This document shows positions 1 to 34,248 of a stretch of 64,000 nucleotides of DNA, one piece after another; within the stretch, counting starts at the first letter, position 1, and the number at the start of each line of letters is the position of its first letter. The position numbers and the translations under genes are program-made. The notes below the pieces were generated by a model, which ran no database searches, was not told the DNA's origin, and saw only the letters and a program-made list of their open reading frames with translations. This stretch comes from an uncultured Candidatus Babeliaceae bacterium (GTDB lineage Bacteria; Babelota; Babeliae; Babelales; Babelaceae), in contig OY969927.1 in assembly GCA_963704655.1 (NCBI GenBank), positions 224,001-288,000 of the forward strand, in the 5' to 3' direction.

Positions 1-2
1 AC

Positions 3-950
3 GGCAAGGTTGTTGGGGTTAATACTTCTGGTTTTGCCGCGGCATCAGCTCAAAATGTTAATTACATTATTCCAAGTAATGAAGTTACTCAGTTTTTAAA
101 ACATGCAGAACAGATGCATTGCGGTGGCGATGATAATAAAGACATTACTTTTTTGCGTAAACCATTTTTAGGTGTTCATTTTAATCCAGCAAGTGAAAGC
201 TTAACAACGTTCTTGAAAAATCCGCTTCCAGGTGGTTTATATGTTGTTGAAACCTATAAAAACAGCCCGCTACAAAAAGCAGGCGTTAAAGCTGGTGATA
301 TGATTTATGATATCGATGGTCATAGATTAGATGTTTTTGGTGAAATGAATGCACCGTGGTGCGAAGACAAAGTATCTATTGTCGATTATGTTTCGCGACT
401 TATGTTGGGAGATAAGATACATGTTACGGTATATCGTAATGGTAAGCCGGTTAAGCTATCATTTGTTTTTGAACAATGCGAACTTCCTGCAGTTCGTCAA
501 AAATTCCCGCCGTATGAAAAGATAGATTATGAATTGTTTGGCGGTATGGTCTTTATGGATCTTGCTCTCGATCATATTGCGCATCTTATTCAATCTGCAC
601 CATATCTTTCAAAATATATGGACTTTAAAAATCAGTTGGAGCCTGCTATAGTTCTTGCACATGTGTTGCCAGATTCTGTTGCATTGCGTTCACATGTATT
701 AATGCGTGGACAGATTATTAAAGAAATTAATGGCGTTGAAGTTAAAAATCTTGCCGACGTGCGAAGCGCATTAAGAAAAAGCATCGGATCTGATCATGTC
801 ACGATTAAAACATCAGAAAATATGTTTGTCGCGTTACCATTTAAAAAGATGCTTGAAGATGAAGACAAGCTCTCACGCATGCTGTTTTATACTATAACAC
901 CATTTGTTCAAGAGCTTATGAAAGACCAGCGTGTACATAATGGTAAATAG
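3..950 (+). CDS. HtrA/Deg-family serine protease with PDZ domains (5'-truncated by window edge)
   Basis: The frame is open from base 3 (GKVVGVNT...QNVNYIIP, end of a trypsin-like domain). PDZ segments follow (GLYVVETYKNSPLQKAGVKAGDMIYDIDG; IIKEINGVEVKNL). The track start at 114 is internal. Confidence 0.85.
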   Translation, partial: GKVVGVNTSGFAAASAQNVNYIIPSNEVTQFLKHAEQMHCGGDDNKDITFLRKPFLGVHFNPASESLTTFLKNPLPGGLYVVETYKNSPLQKAGVKAGDMIYDIDGHRLDVFGEMNAPWCEDKVSIVDYVSRLMLGDKIHVTVYRNGKPVKLSFVFEQCELPAVRQKFPPYEKIDYELFGGMVFMDLALDHIAHLIQSAPYLSKYMDFKNQLEPAIVLAHVLPDSVALRSHVLMRGQIIKEINGVEVKNLADVRSALRKSIGSDHVTIKTSENMFVALPFKKMLEDEDKLSRMLFYTITPFVQELMKDQRVHNGK

Positions 951-970
951 TCTGGTTATTGTAAATAGAG

Positions 971-1006
971 CCCGCTCGTGGTGAGCGAAGTCGAATCCAT
1001 AGCGGG
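971..1006. repeat. Palindromic repeat, family A (CCGCTC..TGAGC..GTCGAA..GCGG)
   Basis: cccgctcgtggtgagcgaagtcgaatccatagcggg; related copies at 1462, 2823, 14583, 31293, 33990, 35457 and 35508. Confidence 0.8.
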
Positions 1007-1020
1007 ATAAAGTAATAATT

Positions 1021-1854
1021 ATGGTTAAAACTCGTTTAGATAAAATTGTGGGGCAGCGCTACCCGGCGCTCTCGCGATCTAAAATACAAGAACTTATTAC
1101 ACAAGGTGCCGTTACGGTGAACGGCACCATTATTACCCGATCAAATTTTTTGGTTCTTGATAGTGCAATTATCGAACTTGATACAACTTTTCTTAAATAT
1201 GTTTCTCGCGCAGGCTTAAAGCTAGAATACGCATTACAGTATTTTAACATCTCTGTTAAAGATTTAATCTGCCTTGATGCGGGGTTATCAACCGGCGGGT
1301 TCACAGACTGTTTATTACAGCATGGCGCACATAAAGTTTACGGTGTTGATGTTGGCACTGCGCAGGTTGACCAAAAAATCGCGCAAGACCCCCGCGTGGT
1401 TATCATGGAAAACACCGATATTCGTAATATTATTCCACCAATAGGCGGGAACTCCCCTCATCCGCTCACCCTGAGCGAAGTCGACGTGTCCGGCGAAGCC
1501 TTGGCGAAGACGGAAGGGTCAAAGCGGCTTCCAGAACTAGTTGATATAATCACACTCGATCTTTCATTTATCTCCATAACTAAAGTAATAGAACATGTAG
1601 CTGACTTAATAAAACCGGGCGGGATATTAATTACGCTGATTAAACCGCAATTTGAAGTGGGACGTGAAGCCGCACAAGCTGCATCTGGGGTTATTAAAGA
1701 CAGCGATCTTCAACAGGTCACGGTGCAAAGCGTTATTAAAAGTATAGAATCAGCGGGCTTTGACTATAAAAACCTCACCGAATCACCGATTCTTGGCGGG
1801 TCGGGAAATAAAGAATTTTTAGCATATTGGTGCGCTAAGCGCACTGCTTTGTAA
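1021..1854 (+). CDS. tlyA: TlyA-family rRNA 2'-O-methyltransferase (S4 + FtsJ domains) with an in-frame repeat insertion
   Basis: RLDK S4 domain, YVSRAGLKL, LDAGLSTGGFTDCLLQHGA, DLSFIS, LIKPQFE, SPILGGSGNKEFL. Confidence 0.95.
   Translation: MVKTRLDKIVGQRYPALSRSKIQELITQGAVTVNGTIITRSNFLVLDSAIIELDTTFLKYVSRAGLKLEYALQYFNISVKDLICLDAGLSTGGFTDCLLQHGAHKVYGVDVGTAQVDQKIAQDPRVVIMENTDIRNIIPPIGGNSPHPLTLSEVDVSGEALAKTEGSKRLPELVDIITLDLSFISITKVIEHVADLIKPGGILITLIKPQFEVGREAAQAASGVIKDSDLQQVTVQSVIKSIESAGFDYKNLTESPILGGSGNKEFLAYWCAKRTAL
1462..1527. repeat. Family A palindrome with a nested 30-bp family B hairpin, in frame inside tlyA
   Basis: ccgctcaccctgagcgaagtcga[cgtgtccggcgaagccttggcgaagacgga]agggtcaaagcgg, 66 bp. 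Confidence 0.8.
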
Positions 1855-1881
1855 AAAAATTATAAAATAGTAAGTATATAT

Positions 1882-1972
1882 GCGCCCTACTTCGCTCTTG
1901 AAGAGCTCCGAAGGGCAGGCCTGTAGCTTTCCGGACTTCAAAATAGTGAGTTTTACTCACCATCCGTAGGTT
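1882..1972 (+). pseudogene. Broken 5' copy of tRNA-Arg(TCG) interrupted by two hairpin insertions
   Basis: GCG[B hairpin]CCTGTAGCT..CCGGACTTC[C hairpin]..TCCGTAGGTT matches pieces of the intact tRNA at 2023 in the same order. Confidence 0.7.
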
Positions 1973-2022
1973 ATCGAAAAAATAACTTTTATTTGCTAAA
2001 ATTGATACAATATATATTAAAT

Positions 2023-2099
2023 GCGCCTGTAGCTCAATTGGATAGAGTGCCGGACTTCGAATCCGTAGGTTGCAGGTTCGAGCCCTGCCAGGCGCACCA
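2023..2099 (+). tRNA. tRNA-Arg(TCG)
   Basis: Cloverleaf: acceptor GCGCCTG/CAGGCGC, anticodon loop CT-TCG-AA, T-arm GCAGG-TTCGAGC-CCTGC, encoded CCA. Confidence 0.95.
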
Positions 2100-2182
2100 T
2101 CTTTCGCTTATCCGGGGCTTCCGCCTTGGCAAGCTACAGATGGCAGGCCAGTTTTAAAAAATAAAATATTAGTGAGTAATTC

Positions 2183-2440
2183 ATGATAGAAGAAAGAAAA
2201 CTCAAGATAGCTGAAGCTCTTAAGGACAAGGGCGTGAAATTGCCATGTCCTCGCTGTGGTGGATTAAATTTTGAAGTCGTAGATCAAACGGTGCTATCAA
2301 TTAATGATAATTTAAATGTTATAAAATTAGGTGGTCCGTCTGTACCCGCAGCTTTAGTAGCTTGCTCACATTGTGGATTTATTACATTCCATTCATTGGG
2401 AGTTTTAAATTTAATGCCCAAAGATGAGAATATACAATGA
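2183..2440 (+). CDS. Small zinc-ribbon protein
   Basis: CPRC...CSHC motifs, 85 aa; overlaps the next ORF by ATGA. Confidence 0.75.
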   Translation: MIEERKLKIAEALKDKGVKLPCPRCGGLNFEVVDQTVLSINDNLNVIKLGGPSVPAALVACSHCGFITFHSLGVLNLMPKDENIQ

Positions 2441-2721
2441 ATTCCAAAGAGCCTGAAATTCATATTAATACTGCAGGTCCTGCTAACAAAAAAAGTAAGT
2501 TTGATCCTTCTATGCATCCTGGGGTTTTGGGTAAATTTTTTGGTGCTATCGAAAATGCGACTACTAGTATTAGCGGTTTAGTCGTTATTCTATTGATTGT
2601 AATTGCAACTTTAATTACATTTGTAGAAACAAAAGTTGATGCTACTGATTATTGGAAAAGTATTGTGTTGCCGACTGTTACAGCGCTGTTCGGATATCTT
2701 TTTGGAAAGCGTCCTAAGTAA
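2437..2721 (+). CDS. Small membrane protein (two predicted TM helices)
   Basis: Hydrophobic ISGLVVILLIVIATLITFV and IVLPTVTALFGYLFG; coupled to the upstream ORF. Confidence 0.7.
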   Translation: MNSKEPEIHINTAGPANKKSKFDPSMHPGVLGKFFGAIENATTSISGLVVILLIVIATLITFVETKVDATDYWKSIVLPTVTALFGYLFGKRPK

Positions 2722-2722
2722 A

Positions 2723-2820
2723 TAGATTGCAGGCCTGTCCTCTGTAGCGTGGTGCGTGAAACGCACTATTTCGCGTAAGGGGATTCGAGCCCTGCCAGGC
2801 GCACCATCTTGCGCTTATCC
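2723..2820 (+). repeat. Duplicated 3' part of tRNA-Arg(TCG), att-like, with a B/C hairpin inserted at the T-loop
   Basis: 2784-2820 matches 2077-2113 with one mismatch in 37 bp; the upstream TAGATTGCAGG matches tRNA TAGGTTGCAGG, with an insert at 2734-2783 between them. Confidence 0.85.
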
Positions 2821-2822
2821 AT

Positions 2823-2870
2823 GCCGCTCACCCTGAGTGTTTTGCGAAAGCAAAATGTTTCGAAGGGCGG
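2823..2870. repeat. Family A palindrome
   Basis: gccgctcaccctgagtgttttgcgaaagcaaaatgtttcgaagggcgg. Confidence 0.75.
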
Positions 2871-2935
2871 GACCCATGGTTAGGAATGAAAAATCTAAGT
2901 TCCAAGCCTAAATTCACGAAAAATTGAAGGTCTTT

Positions 2936-3940
2936 ATGGAAAAATTTACTCAAAAAATTATGATTCTATTGGCATCAATTGCCTGTCTTGTATATGCAAC
3001 AGCTGCGCCGTTACATGCAGTGGATGAAGCATCTCTTAAGAGCTTAGAAAGCAACGCTTGGAAACATGCTTATGCGGATCGAAAACATCTAGCGCTTGCA
3101 ATATTCAAAAAAGCAGCGCGTCTTGGTAGTTGGCAAGCTGCACAATTTTTGGCAAATGAGTATAATGAAGAGCATTTATTGAGTGAGTCAGATGCTGACC
3201 ACGCAGGTAAAAAATTTGCCGAATTGGCAAACACTCATGAGAAGCGATTAGATGAAAAATATCCTTTTGTTTCGTCCACACCTGTTAGCAGAAGGCATCT
3301 TCTAGAAGATCGCATTCAAAAATTGAGAGCAATACAGATTGCCCGTATAACACCATGGTACAAGGAGGTCTTGGAAGAATTTCCCAGGGCACAACAGCCA
3401 GAAACAAGTGCATTATATATTTTTAATACACTTGTTGGGTCATCTGATTCGGGCGCTGGAAAATGTAGGCGAGGGCATTTGTTTGAGATAGCCGTACCCC
3501 ACGCTTCTAGAGAAACTTTACAAGAGATATTTAAAAAAATGAAAGAGCGTCATAAGAGGTGGACTGGACATTATTCATCGTCTTTTAAAGATCACATTAA
3601 AGTGAGTCGAAGTGTAATGCGGGGATTGGATTTAGCAGCTAGAAAGAACGATGCTATTGATGAACTTAAAGATGTTTATGGAGGGGCATTTTTTTACCTT
3701 TACTATGATTGGATTTTGGGTCGCGACCAGCTGAGCGATTTTGGAGCAACCCATGATGACTTTGACGAGGAGGACATGGTTTGTGCGTTCCAGGAGTTGT
3801 ATTGTAATTATGCAAAACTAGATAAGCAAGACGCACAAGATACTATGTTTGGTATTTTGGGTTTTTATATGAAAGAAAAAGATCACAGAATTAGTGAACC
3901 TGTTTCAAAGATATTTAAATTTGTTAAAAATGGAATGTGA
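2936..3940 (+). CDS. Secreted hypothetical protein with one Sel1/TPR-like segment
   Basis: Signal-peptide-like N-terminus; ALAIFKKAARLGSWQAAQFLA resembles a Sel1 repeat; ATG 2936 preferred over TTG 2924. Confidence 0.7.
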   Translation: MEKFTQKIMILLASIACLVYATAAPLHAVDEASLKSLESNAWKHAYADRKHLALAIFKKAARLGSWQAAQFLANEYNEEHLLSESDADHAGKKFAELANTHEKRLDEKYPFVSSTPVSRRHLLEDRIQKLRAIQIARITPWYKEVLEEFPRAQQPETSALYIFNTLVGSSDSGAGKCRRGHLFEIAVPHASRETLQEIFKKMKERHKRWTGHYSSSFKDHIKVSRSVMRGLDLAARKNDAIDELKDVYGGAFFYLYYDWILGRDQLSDFGATHDDFDEEDMVCAFQELYCNYAKLDKQDAQDTMFGILGFYMKEKDHRISEPVSKIFKFVKNGM

Positions 3941-4010
3941 AATTTCATTATATGCATGCGATACTGAAAAACCCAAAAAGAATTTTTCATAAAAATTGTC
4001 TAATAACAAC

Positions 4011-4083
4011 CAAGTTGATATTATCGTAAGTAAAGTTGCAAAATAGTGCGCGAGCGCACCAGATAGACCGATAAGGCGCACCA
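4011..4083 (+). repeat. Cassette boundary repeat ending in GCACCA
   Basis: 4012-4083 versus 7058-7129: 72 bp with 5 mismatches by eye; shorter versions at 5252 and 6412. Confidence 0.85.
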
Positions 4084-4118
4084 AGTTTCAAGGACGATTT
4101 TTTATAGGTTAGGGATCG

Positions 4119-4694
4119 ATGATGCAAAACATTTTCATTTTATTAGCGCTTTTGCTATGCGAATTATATTCATACGCACAACCAAATGATCGAGGGGATA
4201 GTTCGTTGCATTTGGCTGTTATGGGAAGTGGGCCAGAAGCAGTAAGAGTTGTTGCAGAATTGATTGATAATGGTGCGGACATTGAAGCGCGAAACAATTT
4301 TGGTCAAACGCCCCTATTTTACGCAAGTTTATTCTGGGAAATGGATGACTCAAAATTACAAATAATTACTAATCTTTTATTAAAGGGGGCATCGTTACAA
4401 ACAAAAATCAAAGATGAAACTTGTTTTGAGGCTCTTAAGAAAGTTTATTTATTTAAGAGCGAAGGGCAAGTTGCGGAGCTTTTATCATTCTTCAATCGAG
4501 GTGAAAAGGATTTACAAATATTTCTCTCTTTTTTAAACGAACAGAAAGAACCAGCAATAAGAAAAGATGCATATAGAGAAATTATATTGAAATATCATCC
4601 TGATAGAGAGGTAAAGTATAGAGAATTACGCAATTTTATAACCCAAAAAATAATTAATTCCTATCGGCAAGCTACAGAGGGCGATCCAGTTTAA
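4119..4694 (+). CDS. Secreted ankyrin-repeat protein with a C-terminal J-domain-like segment
   Basis: Signal peptide; GDSSLHLAV and GADIEARNNFGQTPLFYA ankyrin motifs; AYREIILKYHPDR (HPD motif). Confidence 0.8.
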   Translation: MMQNIFILLALLLCELYSYAQPNDRGDSSLHLAVMGSGPEAVRVVAELIDNGADIEARNNFGQTPLFYASLFWEMDDSKLQIITNLLLKGASLQTKIKDETCFEALKKVYLFKSEGQVAELLSFFNRGEKDLQIFLSFLNEQKEPAIRKDAYREIILKYHPDREVKYRELRNFITQKIINSYRQATEGDPV

Positions 4695-4712
4695 CAAACA
4701 GGATGATTTTTT

Positions 4713-5150
4713 ATGTATAAAAGTTACATCTTCGTTCTTGCAATATGCACATTCTCATATTTATTTGCAACGGATCAAACAATTAATTTAAGGCTGCTGC
4801 TTGACGGTAAAGTTCGGGGTGCGAATATGATTGAGGCGATTTGTAAGGCTTCGTCTCACTCCCCATTGGCTGCCGCAGTGAGTGAAAAGAAAACTGTTGC
4901 AGTTGCCATAAGGCTGCGAAACAATGCATTAGATATTCGTTGTTTTGACACAGCCACGCCACCAGAATATATAAGCCTTATTGGAGAATATTGTTCCGCG
5001 TACCGCTCACTTTATCTAAATAAAGATATGATTACGTTGCGCTCATCAAATTTTGATTCAGAGAATCAGCTCGTTATTATTGGTTTAGCAAATAATGGCA
5101 AAGAACTACGCCAAGTTTATTCTGAAGAAAAATATGCTGTTCAAGATTAA
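4713..5150 (+). CDS. Secreted hypothetical protein
   Basis: 145-aa ORF with a signal-peptide-like N-terminus and AGGA upstream. Confidence 0.7.
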   Translation: MYKSYIFVLAICTFSYLFATDQTINLRLLLDGKVRGANMIEAICKASSHSPLAAAVSEKKTVAVAIRLRNNALDIRCFDTATPPEYISLIGEYCSAYRSLYLNKDMITLRSSNFDSENQLVIIGLANNGKELRQVYSEEKYAVQD

Positions 5151-5251
5151 TCATTTATTTCTGGGCCCTCTTAATATTCGAACTTCTATAAAATTATTTT
5201 TATAAATCTTGGTAGTATGGGTTATGAATATAACAATTGCCTGATAGCGAA

Positions 5252-5370
5252 CAAGTTGATATTCTTGTAAAAGAAGTTACTAAGATAGCCCGATAGGTAG
5301 CACCATATTGCGCTCTTTTAGAGCTACCTTCTTGCACTAAAGTTGCAAAGGACAGGCAGATGGCAGGCCA
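5252..5370 (+). repeat. Cassette boundary repeat plus CCA-anchored B hairpin with a nested 30-bp B copy
   Basis: caagttgatatt..aagttactaagatagcccgataggtagcacca, then ccatat..[5327-5356]..agatggcaggcca. Confidence 0.75.
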
Positions 5371-5582
5371 TCCTCTTGTTTTCCAATCAAGTTACGAAAA
5401 TTTTGCACGAATAGAGAGGAACCAGGTGTCAGAATGGCAATTTACCTACATGGGGAATATTCTTGAGTACATGCATATTGGAAAATCAACAAATTTTTGT
5501 TCTTTACTCCTTGTTTATATAATCCAATTGTTATAAACTTTATAAGTTCATTTTTGTATAAACCCTTTATTCTAGGTTAAAC

Positions 5583-6245
5583 ATGAAAAAACTTATGTTC
5601 TTAATGACATTCGTAATGGTATCAAACTCTCTGGTAGGAATGGCGTATCTTACCCTTGCCACAGGAGAGCCAGTGAGCCTTGAACAACCAGATGGTACTG
5701 AATTTTCAGCGGTTGACATCTCACTCATGTTTGAATCCCATGCAAAACGTGTGTATGAAAATTTTCATGTTGACGCTGCGGTGCTAAGAAATACAAAATT
5801 TTTGGTGTCTTCTCATAAAGACTTCGCCCAGGTAGAGAAAGTTGACGATGGGAGAGCTTGGTTTTTTAAGCAAGCTGGGGAACTCGTACGATTGGTGAGA
5901 GGAAAAGATGGTTCTAATTATGTGGTACTTTCGCCAGCGATGTTAACTTGGTATGATGCGGGTCATTTTAATCATAATAATAGTACCGTGAGCTATAATG
6001 CATTCTATCTTTTTGAATTGTTGTCTGTTGCGCGAGGATGTACATTTGCCGATGAAGAGTTTGGCGGGCCAGATTATCTGGCAAAAAGATATAAGTTTGC
6101 AGTAGAAAGGTTTTCTTCTGAAGGCCTTAAGGGATTGCAAGAAAGCTTTGAGAGTAGCAAGGAGATAGTTTCTGGTTATCAGGGCGTGCCTGAACTGCTT
6201 GCTCAAGAGCTGGCAAAGCGCAGGATGTCAGCCGATAAAGAATAA
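5583..6245 (+). CDS. Secreted hypothetical protein
   Basis: 220-aa ORF; MKKLMFLMTFVMVSNSLVG signal-like N-terminus. Confidence 0.75.
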   Translation: MKKLMFLMTFVMVSNSLVGMAYLTLATGEPVSLEQPDGTEFSAVDISLMFESHAKRVYENFHVDAAVLRNTKFLVSSHKDFAQVEKVDDGRAWFFKQAGELVRLVRGKDGSNYVVLSPAMLTWYDAGHFNHNNSTVSYNAFYLFELLSVARGCTFADEEFGGPDYLAKRYKFAVERFSSEGLKGLQESFESSKEIVSGYQGVPELLAQELAKRRMSADKE

Positions 6246-6411
6246 AGGGAATTATTATGGATCATCTACCATTGTACCTATAAAAAACCATTTAAACTTC
6301 AGCTTTTTCATATTTTTTAAATCTATGCCACAGATGAACGTAACGAGCTTAAGGTATTCGGTATGGCTGCGAGCAGCTGACGGATAGCGTAGATTGTGCT
6401 ACTATCTATAG

Positions 6412-6475
6412 AGAAGTTGCGACAATAGCCCGATAGAGTGCACCATACTTCGCCAAGGCTTCGTATGGCGAGCCA
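6412..6475 (+). repeat. Cassette boundary repeat plus CCA-anchored B hairpin
   Basis: agaagttgcgacaatagcccgatagagtgca-ccatacttcgccaaggcttcgtatggcgagcca. Confidence 0.75.
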
Positions 6476-6542
6476 GCCTTTTTACGGAATGACAGGCAAA
6501 TCATAGTTCTTTGTTTTTTTGAAAATTCTGAGGAAAATAATT

Positions 6543-6917
6543 ATGAAACAATTTTTTCTTTTTCTTGCGATTATGCCAATTGCATTGCTAGCCATGGAGC
6601 CAAATAATCATGCCTCTCTCGGACTAGTTGAGCATTTTGCTATAATGCTCAGTGCAGGTAGTCAATACACCGAGCGCACATTGGATAATTTAAAATCAAA
6701 ACGCTTGGAAAGTCTCGCTGAGATGAAACAAAAGCAAGCAATACCAAAAATTATAAATCAATTAGAAACATGTGCTGAAAATGATAAGCTAAAAAGCCGG
6801 GTGCAATGCCAAGTAGTTTATGATTGGTTCATTTCAGAGCTTCGAGCCCAAGGATATTTTACAAATGTACCTGTGGGTGGGGAATTTACTCAAAAAGTAA
6901 TGGAAGCCATTGAATAA
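6543..6917 (+). CDS. Secreted hypothetical protein
   Basis: MKQFFLFLAIMPIALLAME signal peptide; GAGGA upstream of ATG 6543. Confidence 0.7.
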   Translation: MKQFFLFLAIMPIALLAMEPNNHASLGLVEHFAIMLSAGSQYTERTLDNLKSKRLESLAEMKQKQAIPKIINQLETCAENDKLKSRVQCQVVYDWFISELRAQGYFTNVPVGGEFTQKVMEAIE

Positions 6918-7057
6918 TTTGCTTAGATTTACTTACCCTTATTAATAAAAATTGGCGAGAGCCAGAGTACAAACTTCAAAAACGTGGGCTAAATTTAAAG
7001 TTTTTTTCAAGCTTGAATGGCTTTTAAGCCGTTAATAGAAATTGTTTAATTGCAAGT

Positions 7058-7164
7058 AAGTTGATATTATCATAAGTAAAGTTGCAAAATAGTGCGCGAG
7101 CGCACCAGATAACCCGATAGGGTGCACCAGTCATTTCCTTTCAGGGGAAATGCCTGGCAGGCCA
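7058..7164 (+). repeat. Cassette boundary repeat plus CCA-anchored hairpin
   Basis: Near-copy of 4012-4083, followed by ccagtcatttcc..ggaaatgcctggcaggcca. Confidence 0.85.
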
Positions 7165-7208
7165 GTCTCTTTAATCAACAAATTTTATATAAAAAAATTG
7201 AAAATTAC

Positions 7209-7256
7209 GCGCCCGTAGCTTCCACCTTCGTTAAAACTATGGTGGACAGGCAGTTG
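7209..7256 (+). pseudogene. 5' fragment of tRNA-Arg(CCT) interrupted by a 30-bp B element
   Basis: GCGCCCGTAGCT[tccaccttcgttaaaactatggtggacagg]CAGT; removing the insert restores GCGCCCGTAGCTCAGT. Confidence 0.7.
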
Positions 7257-7293
7257 TTTAAAATAAAATCTTGAATACTATAGTATTTATAGC

Positions 7294-7370
7294 GCGCCCG
7301 TAGCTCAGTAGGATAGAGCGACAGTTTCCTAAACTGTAGGCCACTGGTTCGAGCCCTGCCAGGCGCACCA
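7294..7370 (+). tRNA. Chimeric tRNA-Arg(CCT) with the 3' end of tRNA-Arg(TCG); possibly a pseudo-tRNA
   Basis: The 5' part matches the tRNA at 9352-9428 except two D-loop bases; the part after GGTTCGA is identical to the TCG tRNA. The T-stem has two mismatches and the acceptor stem one. Confidence 0.8.
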
Positions 7371-7458
7371 GGCTTCGCTCTTACGAGCTTCGCCTGGCAT
7401 GCCAATTTCTTAAATGACTTTTTTTGGAACAGTAAACTTGAGATAATTAAAGCGAAGA

Positions 7459-7519
7459 CTGTCCGGCGTAGCTTCTTTTTTATATAAATTTTTTATGAAC
7501 TATTCAGCGAAGCCTGGAC
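7459..7519. repeat. Family B hairpin with an AT-rich loop just upstream of the GIY-YIG gene
   Basis: ctgtccggcgtagc...gcgaagcctggac; an oppositely oriented B-like hairpin lies at 7368-7404. Confidence 0.7.
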
Positions 7520-7545
7520 TAATTTAAAAAAATAAAGTGATTTCT

Positions 7546-34171: not shown

Positions 34172-34248
34172 GGGCCCATAGCTCAGTCGGTCAGAGCAGT
34201 CGGCTCATAACCGAAAGGTCCCAGGTTCAAGTCCTGGTGGGCCCACCA
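34172..34248 (+). tRNA. tRNA with CAT anticodon, probably tRNA-Ile2 (lysidine)
   Basis: GGGCCCA/TGGGCCC acceptor, CT-CAT-AA loop, encoded CCA; lacks initiator features (no C1 mismatch, no 3 G-C anticodon pairs). Confidence 0.9.

Follow-up and report, generated by a model that had tools for sequence, protein, structure and literature searches.

How can one tRNA gene come to carry the body of one isoacceptor and the 3′ end of another? The question is raised by a tRNA-Arg gene at 7294-7370(+) of the window, by which is meant the whole 64,000-nt stretch analysed here, positions 224001-288000 of the genome G000, itself a single contig of 1,298,077 nt. ARAGORN recognises four tRNA genes there: one for Arg(TCG) at 2023-2099(+), two for Arg(CCT), at 7294-7370(+) and 9352-9428(-), and one for Met at 34172. 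The first of the two CCT genes is the hybrid. With a probability of roughly 70%, and judging from sequence comparison, it is a non-functional junction pseudogene formed by one crossover between two tRNA-Arg paralogs in direct orientation, at the border of a hypervariable accessory locus beside dnaA.

A base-by-base comparison assigns the two parts of the gene. Hybrid positions 1-59 equal those of the intact CCT gene (9352-9428) except for two D-loop bases, which read GTAGG in place of GCCGG, and positions 53-77 are completely identical to the TCG gene at 2023-2099. The preliminary description had likewise traced the sequence up to GGTTCGA to the CCT gene, two D-loop bases aside, and the remainder to the TCG gene, and both assignments hold base for base. 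Over positions 60-77 the hybrid differs from the intact CCT gene at five sites, its last 18 nt (GCCCTGCCAGGCGCACCA) being of TCG type. Since both parents have GGTTCGA at positions 53-59, the passage from CCT to TCG sequence may lie anywhere in 7346-7352. When the CCT part is taken as the ancestral-type form, the hybrid has no substitution relative to either parent.

The combination has a structural price. Infernal gives the hybrid 55.2 bits, against 71.5 for the intact CCT gene and 69.9 for the intact TCG gene, so that it passes the Rfam RF00005 gathering score of 29 despite a 16-bit loss. Three of its pairs are non-standard, C6.A67 in the acceptor stem and two of the five T-stem pairs, the same three that had been pointed out on first inspection. 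The minimum-energy fold of the hybrid alone is not a cloverleaf (z -0.88), whereas that of the intact CCT gene is (z -2.89). Besides the hybrid and the TCG gene the genome has the intact CCT gene and a TCT gene for arginine. From its sequence, the hybrid is a genuine but almost certainly dead tRNA gene. That it should be a working RNA, either a tolerated variant of tRNA-Arg(CCT) or a leader or processing signal for the downstream gene, is very improbable: the score above the gathering threshold, the ARAGORN call, a promoter-like site at 7257-7284 and the lack of substitutions would all suit such a role, but the three broken pairs and the non-cloverleaf fold do not, the sequence is absent from all 40 other genomes searched, and the region shows no excess of promoter-like sites (21 observed, 24.2 expected).

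An assembly artefact, in which reads from two tRNA genes were joined, is extremely unlikely. Repeats of this kind do break short-read assemblies, and contigs of the relative G001 end at these very tRNAs; G000, however, was assembled as one 1.298-Mb contig, and a 151-nt contig from the public run X2 matches 7285-7435 with no differences and no gaps. Given its extent, that contig includes both the CCT-to-TCG join and the join of the TCG-type end to the trailer, and it crosses the two unchanged. It was built independently of the genome, although X2 may or may not be the genome's source sample. A normal CCT 3′ end, which the preliminary description had named as the sign of misassembly in 7250-7420, does not appear in it. 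Identical short pieces of the region occur in runs X1 and X2 at low depth, with no alternative joint at the hybrid; at most one quarter of the sampled words of the stretch is present in any single public run, and the runs listed for it include no RNA run. One joint in X1, from 2155 to 2732, was set aside, one of its sides being 22 letters only.

Among the 41 genomes searched the hybrid occurs in G000 only, and its best match elsewhere (94%) is the normal CCT gene of G003. The conservation as a functional tRNA in relatives that the preliminary description had set against a scar is therefore not seen in the 40 other genomes. Neither a 30-mer over the join nor one over the boundary between tRNA and trailer matches any metagenome contig. 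A 19-mer over the join matched four unrelated genome contigs, none of them a tRNA, and so disclosed no second hybrid. Genome G000 has no orphan CCT 3′ end. The reciprocal TCG/CCT chimera, whose existence in relatives had been suggested at the outset, was found neither in G000 nor in the 6 genus and 41 family genomes: its pattern, with three mismatches allowed, matched none of the six genus genomes, and in the six family genomes that it did match, the hits are by eye tRNAs of normal type whose T stems are self-complementary.

The 3′ end of the hybrid is one member of a 25-nt perfect direct repeat, GGTTCGAGCCCTGCCAGGCGCACCA, whose copies lie on the same strand, 5,271 nt apart from start to start (Table 1). 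Elsewhere in the 1.298-Mb genome there is one copy with a single mismatch, at 2782-2806, and none further; as the exact 25-mer occurs just twice genome-wide, the pair is not due to chance. The one-mismatch copy was considered as a clean fragment cut at the T-loop, but by eye it belongs to an entire, decayed TCG copy, of which it is the part that has survived best.

The strain-specific segment between the repeats encodes one ankyrin-repeat protein and six proteins of no Pfam or PHROG family. At the corresponding loci of relatives no homologues of its genes were found. For the 220-aa protein the genome contigs searched gave no relative, the 338-aa protein has weak matches only, in 3 of 260 other Babeliales genomes and none of them informative about a donor, and no donor genome with homologous island genes was found. 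A foreign base composition was rejected, the G+C content of 0.36-0.42 not being distinct from the genome value of 0.38. The two genes between the hybrid and the working CCT gene are each present in none of the five genus relatives. The left flank of the locus has a PDZ protease gene and one for a tlyA-like methyltransferase; to its right lie a thioredoxin-reductase-like gene (trxB) and dnaA. The tlyA-like gene (277 aa) has about 93 extra in-frame nt (window 1426-1542) compared with G003, G001 and G002 (244-256 aa); the extra stretch contains a GC-rich repeat, CCGCTCACCCTGAGCGAAGTCGA, also found at 972-994 and after several tRNAs, and we take this insert to resemble the in-frame palindromic elements of Rickettsia.

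Table 1. Features of the tRNA-Arg locus in the window, order of the locus in related genomes, and further recombinase loci
Feature	Position	Strand	Basis or remarks
Decayed partial tRNA-Arg(TCG) copy upstream of intact gene	1900-1972	+	CTGTAGCT, then anticodon arm with 22-nt hairpin insert; by eye
Intact tRNA-Arg(TCG)	2023-2099	+	ARAGORN, Infernal; last 25 nt (2075-2099) are the left repeat copy
Strain-specific accessory segment	2100-7293	+	Seven ORFs, without recombinase gene
ORFs of accessory segment	2183-2440, 2437-2721, 2924-3940, 4119-4694, 4713-5150, 5583-6245, 6519-6917	+	4119-4694 is the ankyrin gene
Decayed whole tRNA-Arg(TCG) copy	2725-2806	+	5′ piece CTGTAGC, hairpin insert, T-loop-to-CCA part with one mismatch, then type-1 trailer; by eye
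Repeat D2, copy 1	3986-4083	+	Promoter-like stretch; mini tRNA remnant whose end reads GGCGCACCA; then some 10 nt resembling the 3′ end of a serine recombinase gene
Repeat D2, copy 2	7032-7129	+	88% to copy 1; 165 nt upstream of hybrid
Lys/Glu-type trailer hairpin	7130-7171	+	Directly after D2 copy 2
12-nt tRNA-Arg 5′ fragment fused to GC-rich hairpin	7209-7255	+	GCGCCCGTAGCT
Hybrid tRNA-Arg, almost certainly a pseudogene	7294-7370	+	ARAGORN, Infernal, base-by-base comparison, fold
Hybrid, CCT-type body (anticodon CCT)	7294-7345	+
Hybrid, common T-loop GGTTCGA	7346-7352	+
Hybrid, TCG-type 3′ end	7353-7370	+
Right copy of 25-nt repeat GGTTCGAGCCCTGCCAGGCGCACCA	7346-7370	+	Repeat search; X3 joint 2074 to 7346, 25 common letters
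Type-2 tRNA trailer / small inverted-repeat element	7371-7518	+	CCAGGCTTCGC ... GCGAAGCCTGG
Small GIY-YIG nuclease-domain gene, 83 aa	7537-7788	+	PF01541, E 5.1e-18; 167 nt downstream of hybrid
Two strain-specific genes	7819-9299	-	GNAT acetyltransferase 7819-8655; 174-aa orphan 8775-9299; between hybrid and working CCT
Intact working-type tRNA-Arg(CCT)	9352-9428	-	Derived D-loop GCCGG, truncated type-2 trailer; then trxB, dnaA
Layout in G000			Left flank, TCG(+), hybrid(+), CCT(-), right flank
Layout in G003			Left flank, TCG(+), 28 kb, CCT(+), right flank
Layout in G001 and G002			Left flank, CCT(+), ..., TCG(-), right flank
Further serine recombinase loci	L025 4305-5833; L048; L050

A site without the segment is found in a relative. 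One 8,273-nt contig of the public run X3 aligns first to 2021-2074 and resumes at 7346-7788, so that 5,271 nt are left out; 25 letters at the joint match either side. Its right part is 94% identical, with no differences listed over 7346-7531. In this relative a normal TCG gene is followed by the type-2 trailer and the GIY-YIG gene that follow the hybrid in G000. Because the TCG gene of X3 runs into the downstream flank of the hybrid, the 3′ end of the hybrid and this flank belong to the TCG locus. The uninterrupted site is that of a single contig from a metagenome-type run, found at a minimum likeness of 85% in a relative rather than the same strain; its left side is 54 nt of a tRNA that is conserved, and only 22 letters connect it to the upstream gene. 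The preliminary description had seen in the hybrid a scar between two tRNA-Arg genes that probably marks the crossover used in the region. To the extent that a T-loop join lies at an edge of variable DNA, the 25-nt repeats and the X3 contig bear this out.

The CCT part of the hybrid differs from the working CCT gene of G000. It agrees at 59 of 59 positions (1-59) with the CCT gene of G003 and at 58 of 59 with those of G001 and G002. The CCT genes of all three relatives have the D-loop GTAGG, and the working CCT gene of G000 has GCCGG; as the hybrid matches the former, its CCT part is the genus-ancestral form and not a copy of the resident gene. The CCT gene on a 2,155-nt contig of X3 shows one difference over 9343-9428, so at least one of the two D-loop changes is common to X3 and G000.

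In relatives the two genes often stand in tandem. Ten of 19 CCT-centred loci have a TCG (nine) or CCG (one) gene within 900 nt upstream of CCT on the same strand, and in G026 the order is TCG, 1.44 kb, TCG and then CCT. Within the genus the layouts differ (Table 1), and the segment between the two tRNA-Arg genes therefore varies in content and orientation among species. No TCG 3′ copies beyond the tRNAs themselves were found in five genus genomes, and no tRNA is found on L057, a further genus contig with dnaA. Several other observations concern these loci. The dnaA-side accessory segment (2023-9428, compared with L024, L025/L026 and L027/L028) is inverted as a whole, such that the tlyA-like gene neighbours TCG in G000 and CCT in G001 and G002. 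The TCG gene of G002 (L024 4958-5034) has the acceptor pair C6-G67 of the CCT genes where those of G000, G001 and G003 have U6-A67, through either paralogue exchange or a compensatory double change. G026 belongs to another Babeliales family. Upstream of its TCG-CCT pair, at a distance of 1.44 kb, stands a second complete TCG gene (L135 1521-3196); the DNA between its TCG genes holds a 146-aa ORF that runs into the tRNA and whose N-terminus is, by eye only, like that of TnpB/OrfB-type transposon proteins.

The flanks also bear on a short-patch gene conversion, by which some 12-18 nt at the 3′ end of a resident ancestral-type CCT gene at 7294 would have been overwritten from the TCG gene 5.2 kb upstream. 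The resident gene would then have had its own type-2 trailer, and the X3 arrangement would be a later deletion between the repeats. A trailer of the hybrid's type does follow the CCT gene of X3, with 8 differences over 73 nt, a shortened one follows the working CCT gene of G000, and the CCT-type C6-G67 pair in the TCG gene of G002 hints at paralogue exchange. Yet the flank of the hybrid is far closer to the TCG flank of X3, in which no differences are listed over 7346-7531, than to the CCT trailer of X3, the scheme requires two ancestral CCT genes and a subsequent deletion, and the G002 pair could be a plain compensatory substitution. Gene conversion is accordingly an improbable source of the hybrid.

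Small GIY-YIG proteins are common and not necessarily homing enzymes. Were the one here a homing nuclease, break repair could have moved the trailer and the GIY-YIG cassette from a TCG to a CCT gene and dragged the TCG 3′ end along as far as the T-loop. The gene lies close downstream of the hybrid; the same cassette stands directly behind the normal TCG gene in X3, and its homologue in G001 stands behind a decayed tRNA-like end and a similar trailer. Such a co-conversion is nonetheless highly unlikely, as the cassette is single-copy in G000 at the DNA level, the TCG gene here has no cassette with which to act as donor, and the target site and mobility of the cassette are putative. The GIY-YIG gene is wholly overlapped by a longer, family-less ORF on the minus strand (89 aa, 7524-7793), and an ORF list alone would favour the wrong strand.

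In the junction-pseudogene account, a single crossover within the 7-nt GGTTCGA would have joined the 5′ 52 nt of a CCT gene to a TCG 3′ end. The TCG-type 3′ end, the type-2 trailer and the GIY-YIG gene would be the native right side of the TCG locus, and the intact TCG gene (2023), 5.2 kb of orphan genes and the CCT body would form a 5,271-nt block within that locus, between the 25-nt repeats. A donor with the order TCG, accessory DNA, CCT on one strand may have supplied a piece that ran from the TCG 3′ end through the island to the CCT 5′ part; this is the family-ancestral order, which persists in the sister species G003. The right-hand join would then be that of the donor CCT T-loop with the resident TCG T-loop, and the reverse path would be loss of the block through the 25-nt repeats. 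We infer a gain of the block in G000 rather than a loss in the X3 relative, although the evidence fits both directions.

The crossover accounts for the repeats, the uninterrupted site, the ancestral CCT body and the absence of both an orphan CCT 3′ end and a reciprocal hybrid. The working CCT gene on the opposite strand is not explained by the simple route, and a further inversion or an older second copy is therefore needed. Two further points weigh against the account: the lack of any change in 77 nt would be slightly unexpected for an old unconstrained pseudogene, and an ordinary attP would not include 52 nt from a different chromosomal tRNA.

The surroundings of the hybrid are rich in tRNA debris. 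At least seven tRNA-Arg-derived units, all on the + strand, are arrayed across the region. The first copy of the D2 repeat is homologous to sequence adjoining a serine recombinase gene of G001. The arrangement of a 5′ fragment fused to a hairpin at 7209-7255 recurs upstream of the TCG genes of G002 and G001, and 7194-7378 aligns to L024 4857-5042 at 71%. More generally, decayed partial self-copies broken by GC-rich hairpin inserts of about 22-35 nt are seen upstream of tRNA-Arg genes (L028 60-420 on the minus strand, L024 4786-4957, window 1900-1972 and 7209-7255, and G000:C1 at about 839610-839728). A decayed tRNA-Arg copy in G001 has three inserts, one behind position 12, another ahead of the anticodon stem and a third within the anticodon loop, and G002 has two tandem 86-nt units upstream of tRNA-Arg.

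The sequences behind the tRNA genes form families of their own. A conserved trailer of about 50 nt stands behind 16 of the 39 tRNA genes of G000 (e.g., window 2100-2160) and consists of CCA-TCTTGCGCTTATCC, a variable hairpin and GGCAAGCTACAGATGGCAGGCCAG; of 17 AGATGGCRGGCC motifs in the genome, 14 have a tRNA of the same strand no more than 120 nt upstream of them. Its outer stem pairs with the tRNA's own CCA (CCAUCU/AGAUGG), and compensatory changes can be read by eye (CCATCC/GGATGG; GCGT..AAAC; GCGCAT..ATGC). Of two other types, type 2 stands behind the hybrid, tRNA-Cys and tRNA-Met, and type 3 behind tRNA-Lys and tRNA-Glu. In the type-2 trailer of the hybrid the first hairpin pairs with the CCA end, and elements like it follow tRNA-Cys and tRNA-Met in G000 and tRNA-Leu in G001. 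The trailers are absent from G003, and those in window 1-14000 have no Rfam match.

By what enzyme the join was made is a separate question. In its classical form the junction would be an att scar, made by a tyrosine integrase crossing over in the T-loop: the hybrid would be attR, and the attP arm would have held a CCT-like body, acquired for example by aberrant excision from a donor with the T-loop of the neighbouring CCT gene as a pseudo-att site. Such a reading falls within the junction-pseudogene account, from which it differs in the enzyme alone. An intact tDNA and a same-strand 25-nt copy of its 3′ part around accessory DNA, together with the uninterrupted target in one X3 contig, make up the signature of tDNA islands as given in the accessible part of the Islander report, which places attP in the T-stem region in 1,836 of 3,919 islands (PMC4383910). 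An integrase gene on the island, the remaining mark of such elements, is missing here. None of the ORFs of 2100-9351 has a Pfam or PHROG hit to a recombinase, the window contains no PF00589 or PF00239 match, and a tblastn search for remnants with two serine recombinases returned a tRNA-encoded tail only. The only two PF00589 genes of G000, at about 389 kb and 530 kb, lie outside the window. Six genus genomes together have 17 PF00589 matches, of which none is on a contig bearing TCG or CCT; in the genus relatives G001-G003 the contigs with these two genes have no tyrosine recombinase. The other 3′ "fragment", at 2782, is part of a decayed whole copy. A tyrosine-integrase scar is hence possible but unlikely. 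Of the T-loop att site proposed in the preliminary description, the position holds, since the join does lie in the T-loop; its use by an integrase finds no support in 2100-9351.

In this genus it is large serine recombinases that adjoin tRNA genes. In G003 a 505-aa protein with Resolvase, Recombinase and zinc-ribbon domains is encoded by a gene that ends inside tRNA-Arg(TCG). A 64%-identical recombinase of G000 (G000:C1:839729-841305) ends inside tRNA-Arg(TCT), its stop lying 15 nt into the gene. An overlapping tRNA is present at four of five large serine recombinase loci (TCG, TCT twice and Gln). Genes for proteins of about 500 aa end inside opposite-strand tRNAs as follows: Arg-TCT in G000, G005 and G003, Arg-TCG in G003, and Gln in G004. 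The window lacks this edge gene of the serine-recombinase elements, which in G003 adjoins TCG and in G000, at about 840 kb, TCT. The serine recombinase gene of G001 abuts a mini tRNA remnant homologous to the D2 repeats, and because these repeats (3986-4083 and 7032-7129) match the gene-side sequence of G001, the island holds scars of serine-recombinase elements. The conserved overlap of recombinase and tRNA comprises the last 12-15 nt of the tRNA and leaves out the T-loop, and no direct tDNA repeats were found within 9-20 kb at three serine recombinase loci; for these two reasons the normal reaction of the enzymes gives no obvious T-loop join.

No recombinase gene remains at the locus. Conditional on the junction-pseudogene account, short-homology or illegitimate recombination within the array of tRNA-Arg-derived repeats has slightly better than even odds of having made the join, and a site-specific recombinase, since lost, comes close to an even chance without reaching it. 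The single orientation of the array, which includes decayed whole copies, and the TCG gene of G002 with its CCT-type C6-G67 are consistent with recombination that is not site-specific; for ordinary homologous recombination, 7 nt of identity do not suffice. A more specific proposal, that the hybrid is the footprint of a recombinase which treats both tRNA-Arg T-arms as interchangeable sites, is rather improbable. The most plausible recombinase of this kind would be one of the large serine recombinases of the genus, whose genes end in TCG, TCT and Gln genes and which have left scars 165 nt away from the hybrid. If this were true, Babeliales would carry tRNA-targeting serine-recombinase elements, and such elements would shuffle cassettes between tRNA-Arg paralogues beside the replication origin.

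For annotation, the count of tRNA genes is inflated, as ARAGORN gives two tRNA-Arg(CCT) genes of which one is dead. In these reduced genomes of protist-associated Babeliales (Dependentiae), the tRNA-Arg pair by dnaA bounds a fast-turning accessory locus, the content and orientation of which vary between species of one genus and in which the paralogous tRNA genes are themselves substrates of recombination.

Unequal crossing-over and homology-facilitated illegitimate recombination use a few bases common to direct paralogues and yield a hybrid gene together with gain or loss of the intervening DNA. One join at this locus likewise uses few bases common to two direct paralogues. A simple intragenomic unequal crossover fits poorly unless much turnover followed, since the DNA that flanks the hybrid is not duplicated. 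With the large serine recombinase elements of the genus, whose genes end in tRNAs, the locus shares two related scars inside the island; unlike them the window has no such gene, and the island has a 25-nt repeat where three of those loci showed no tDNA repeats. As of 2015, according to the accessible part of the Islander report, serine recombinases were not known to target tRNA genes (PMC4383910).

For Rickettsia peacockii, the part of the report available mentions, without giving its anatomy, a chimeric tRNA gene at one junction of the tra cluster (PMC2791219), and the literature search returned no other paper with the phrase "chimeric tRNA gene". In both cases a hybrid tRNA borders laterally acquired DNA in a small-genome intracellular bacterium. 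In R. peacockii, as far as that part of the account goes, the element is a conjugative tra cluster and IS elements are found at other junctions; neither is seen here (PMC2791219).

The nearest parallel is the tDNA-integrated genomic island as defined by Hudson, Lau and Williams for Islander. Like the islands treated in the accessible part of their report, the locus combines an intact tRNA gene with a direct repeat of its 3′ part from the T-loop/T-stem region onward; accessory DNA separates the two, and a relative has the site uninterrupted (PMC4383910). Unlike those islands it has no integrase gene, its displaced 3′ part is fused to 52 nt of another isoacceptor to give a full-length hybrid, and it holds several further decayed tRNA-Arg units. 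The hybrid resembles the displaced-fragment junction of a tDNA island, but for the missing integrase. It is an ordinary kind of recombination scar and a useful landmark, one that marks with precision where 5.3 kb were gained or lost.
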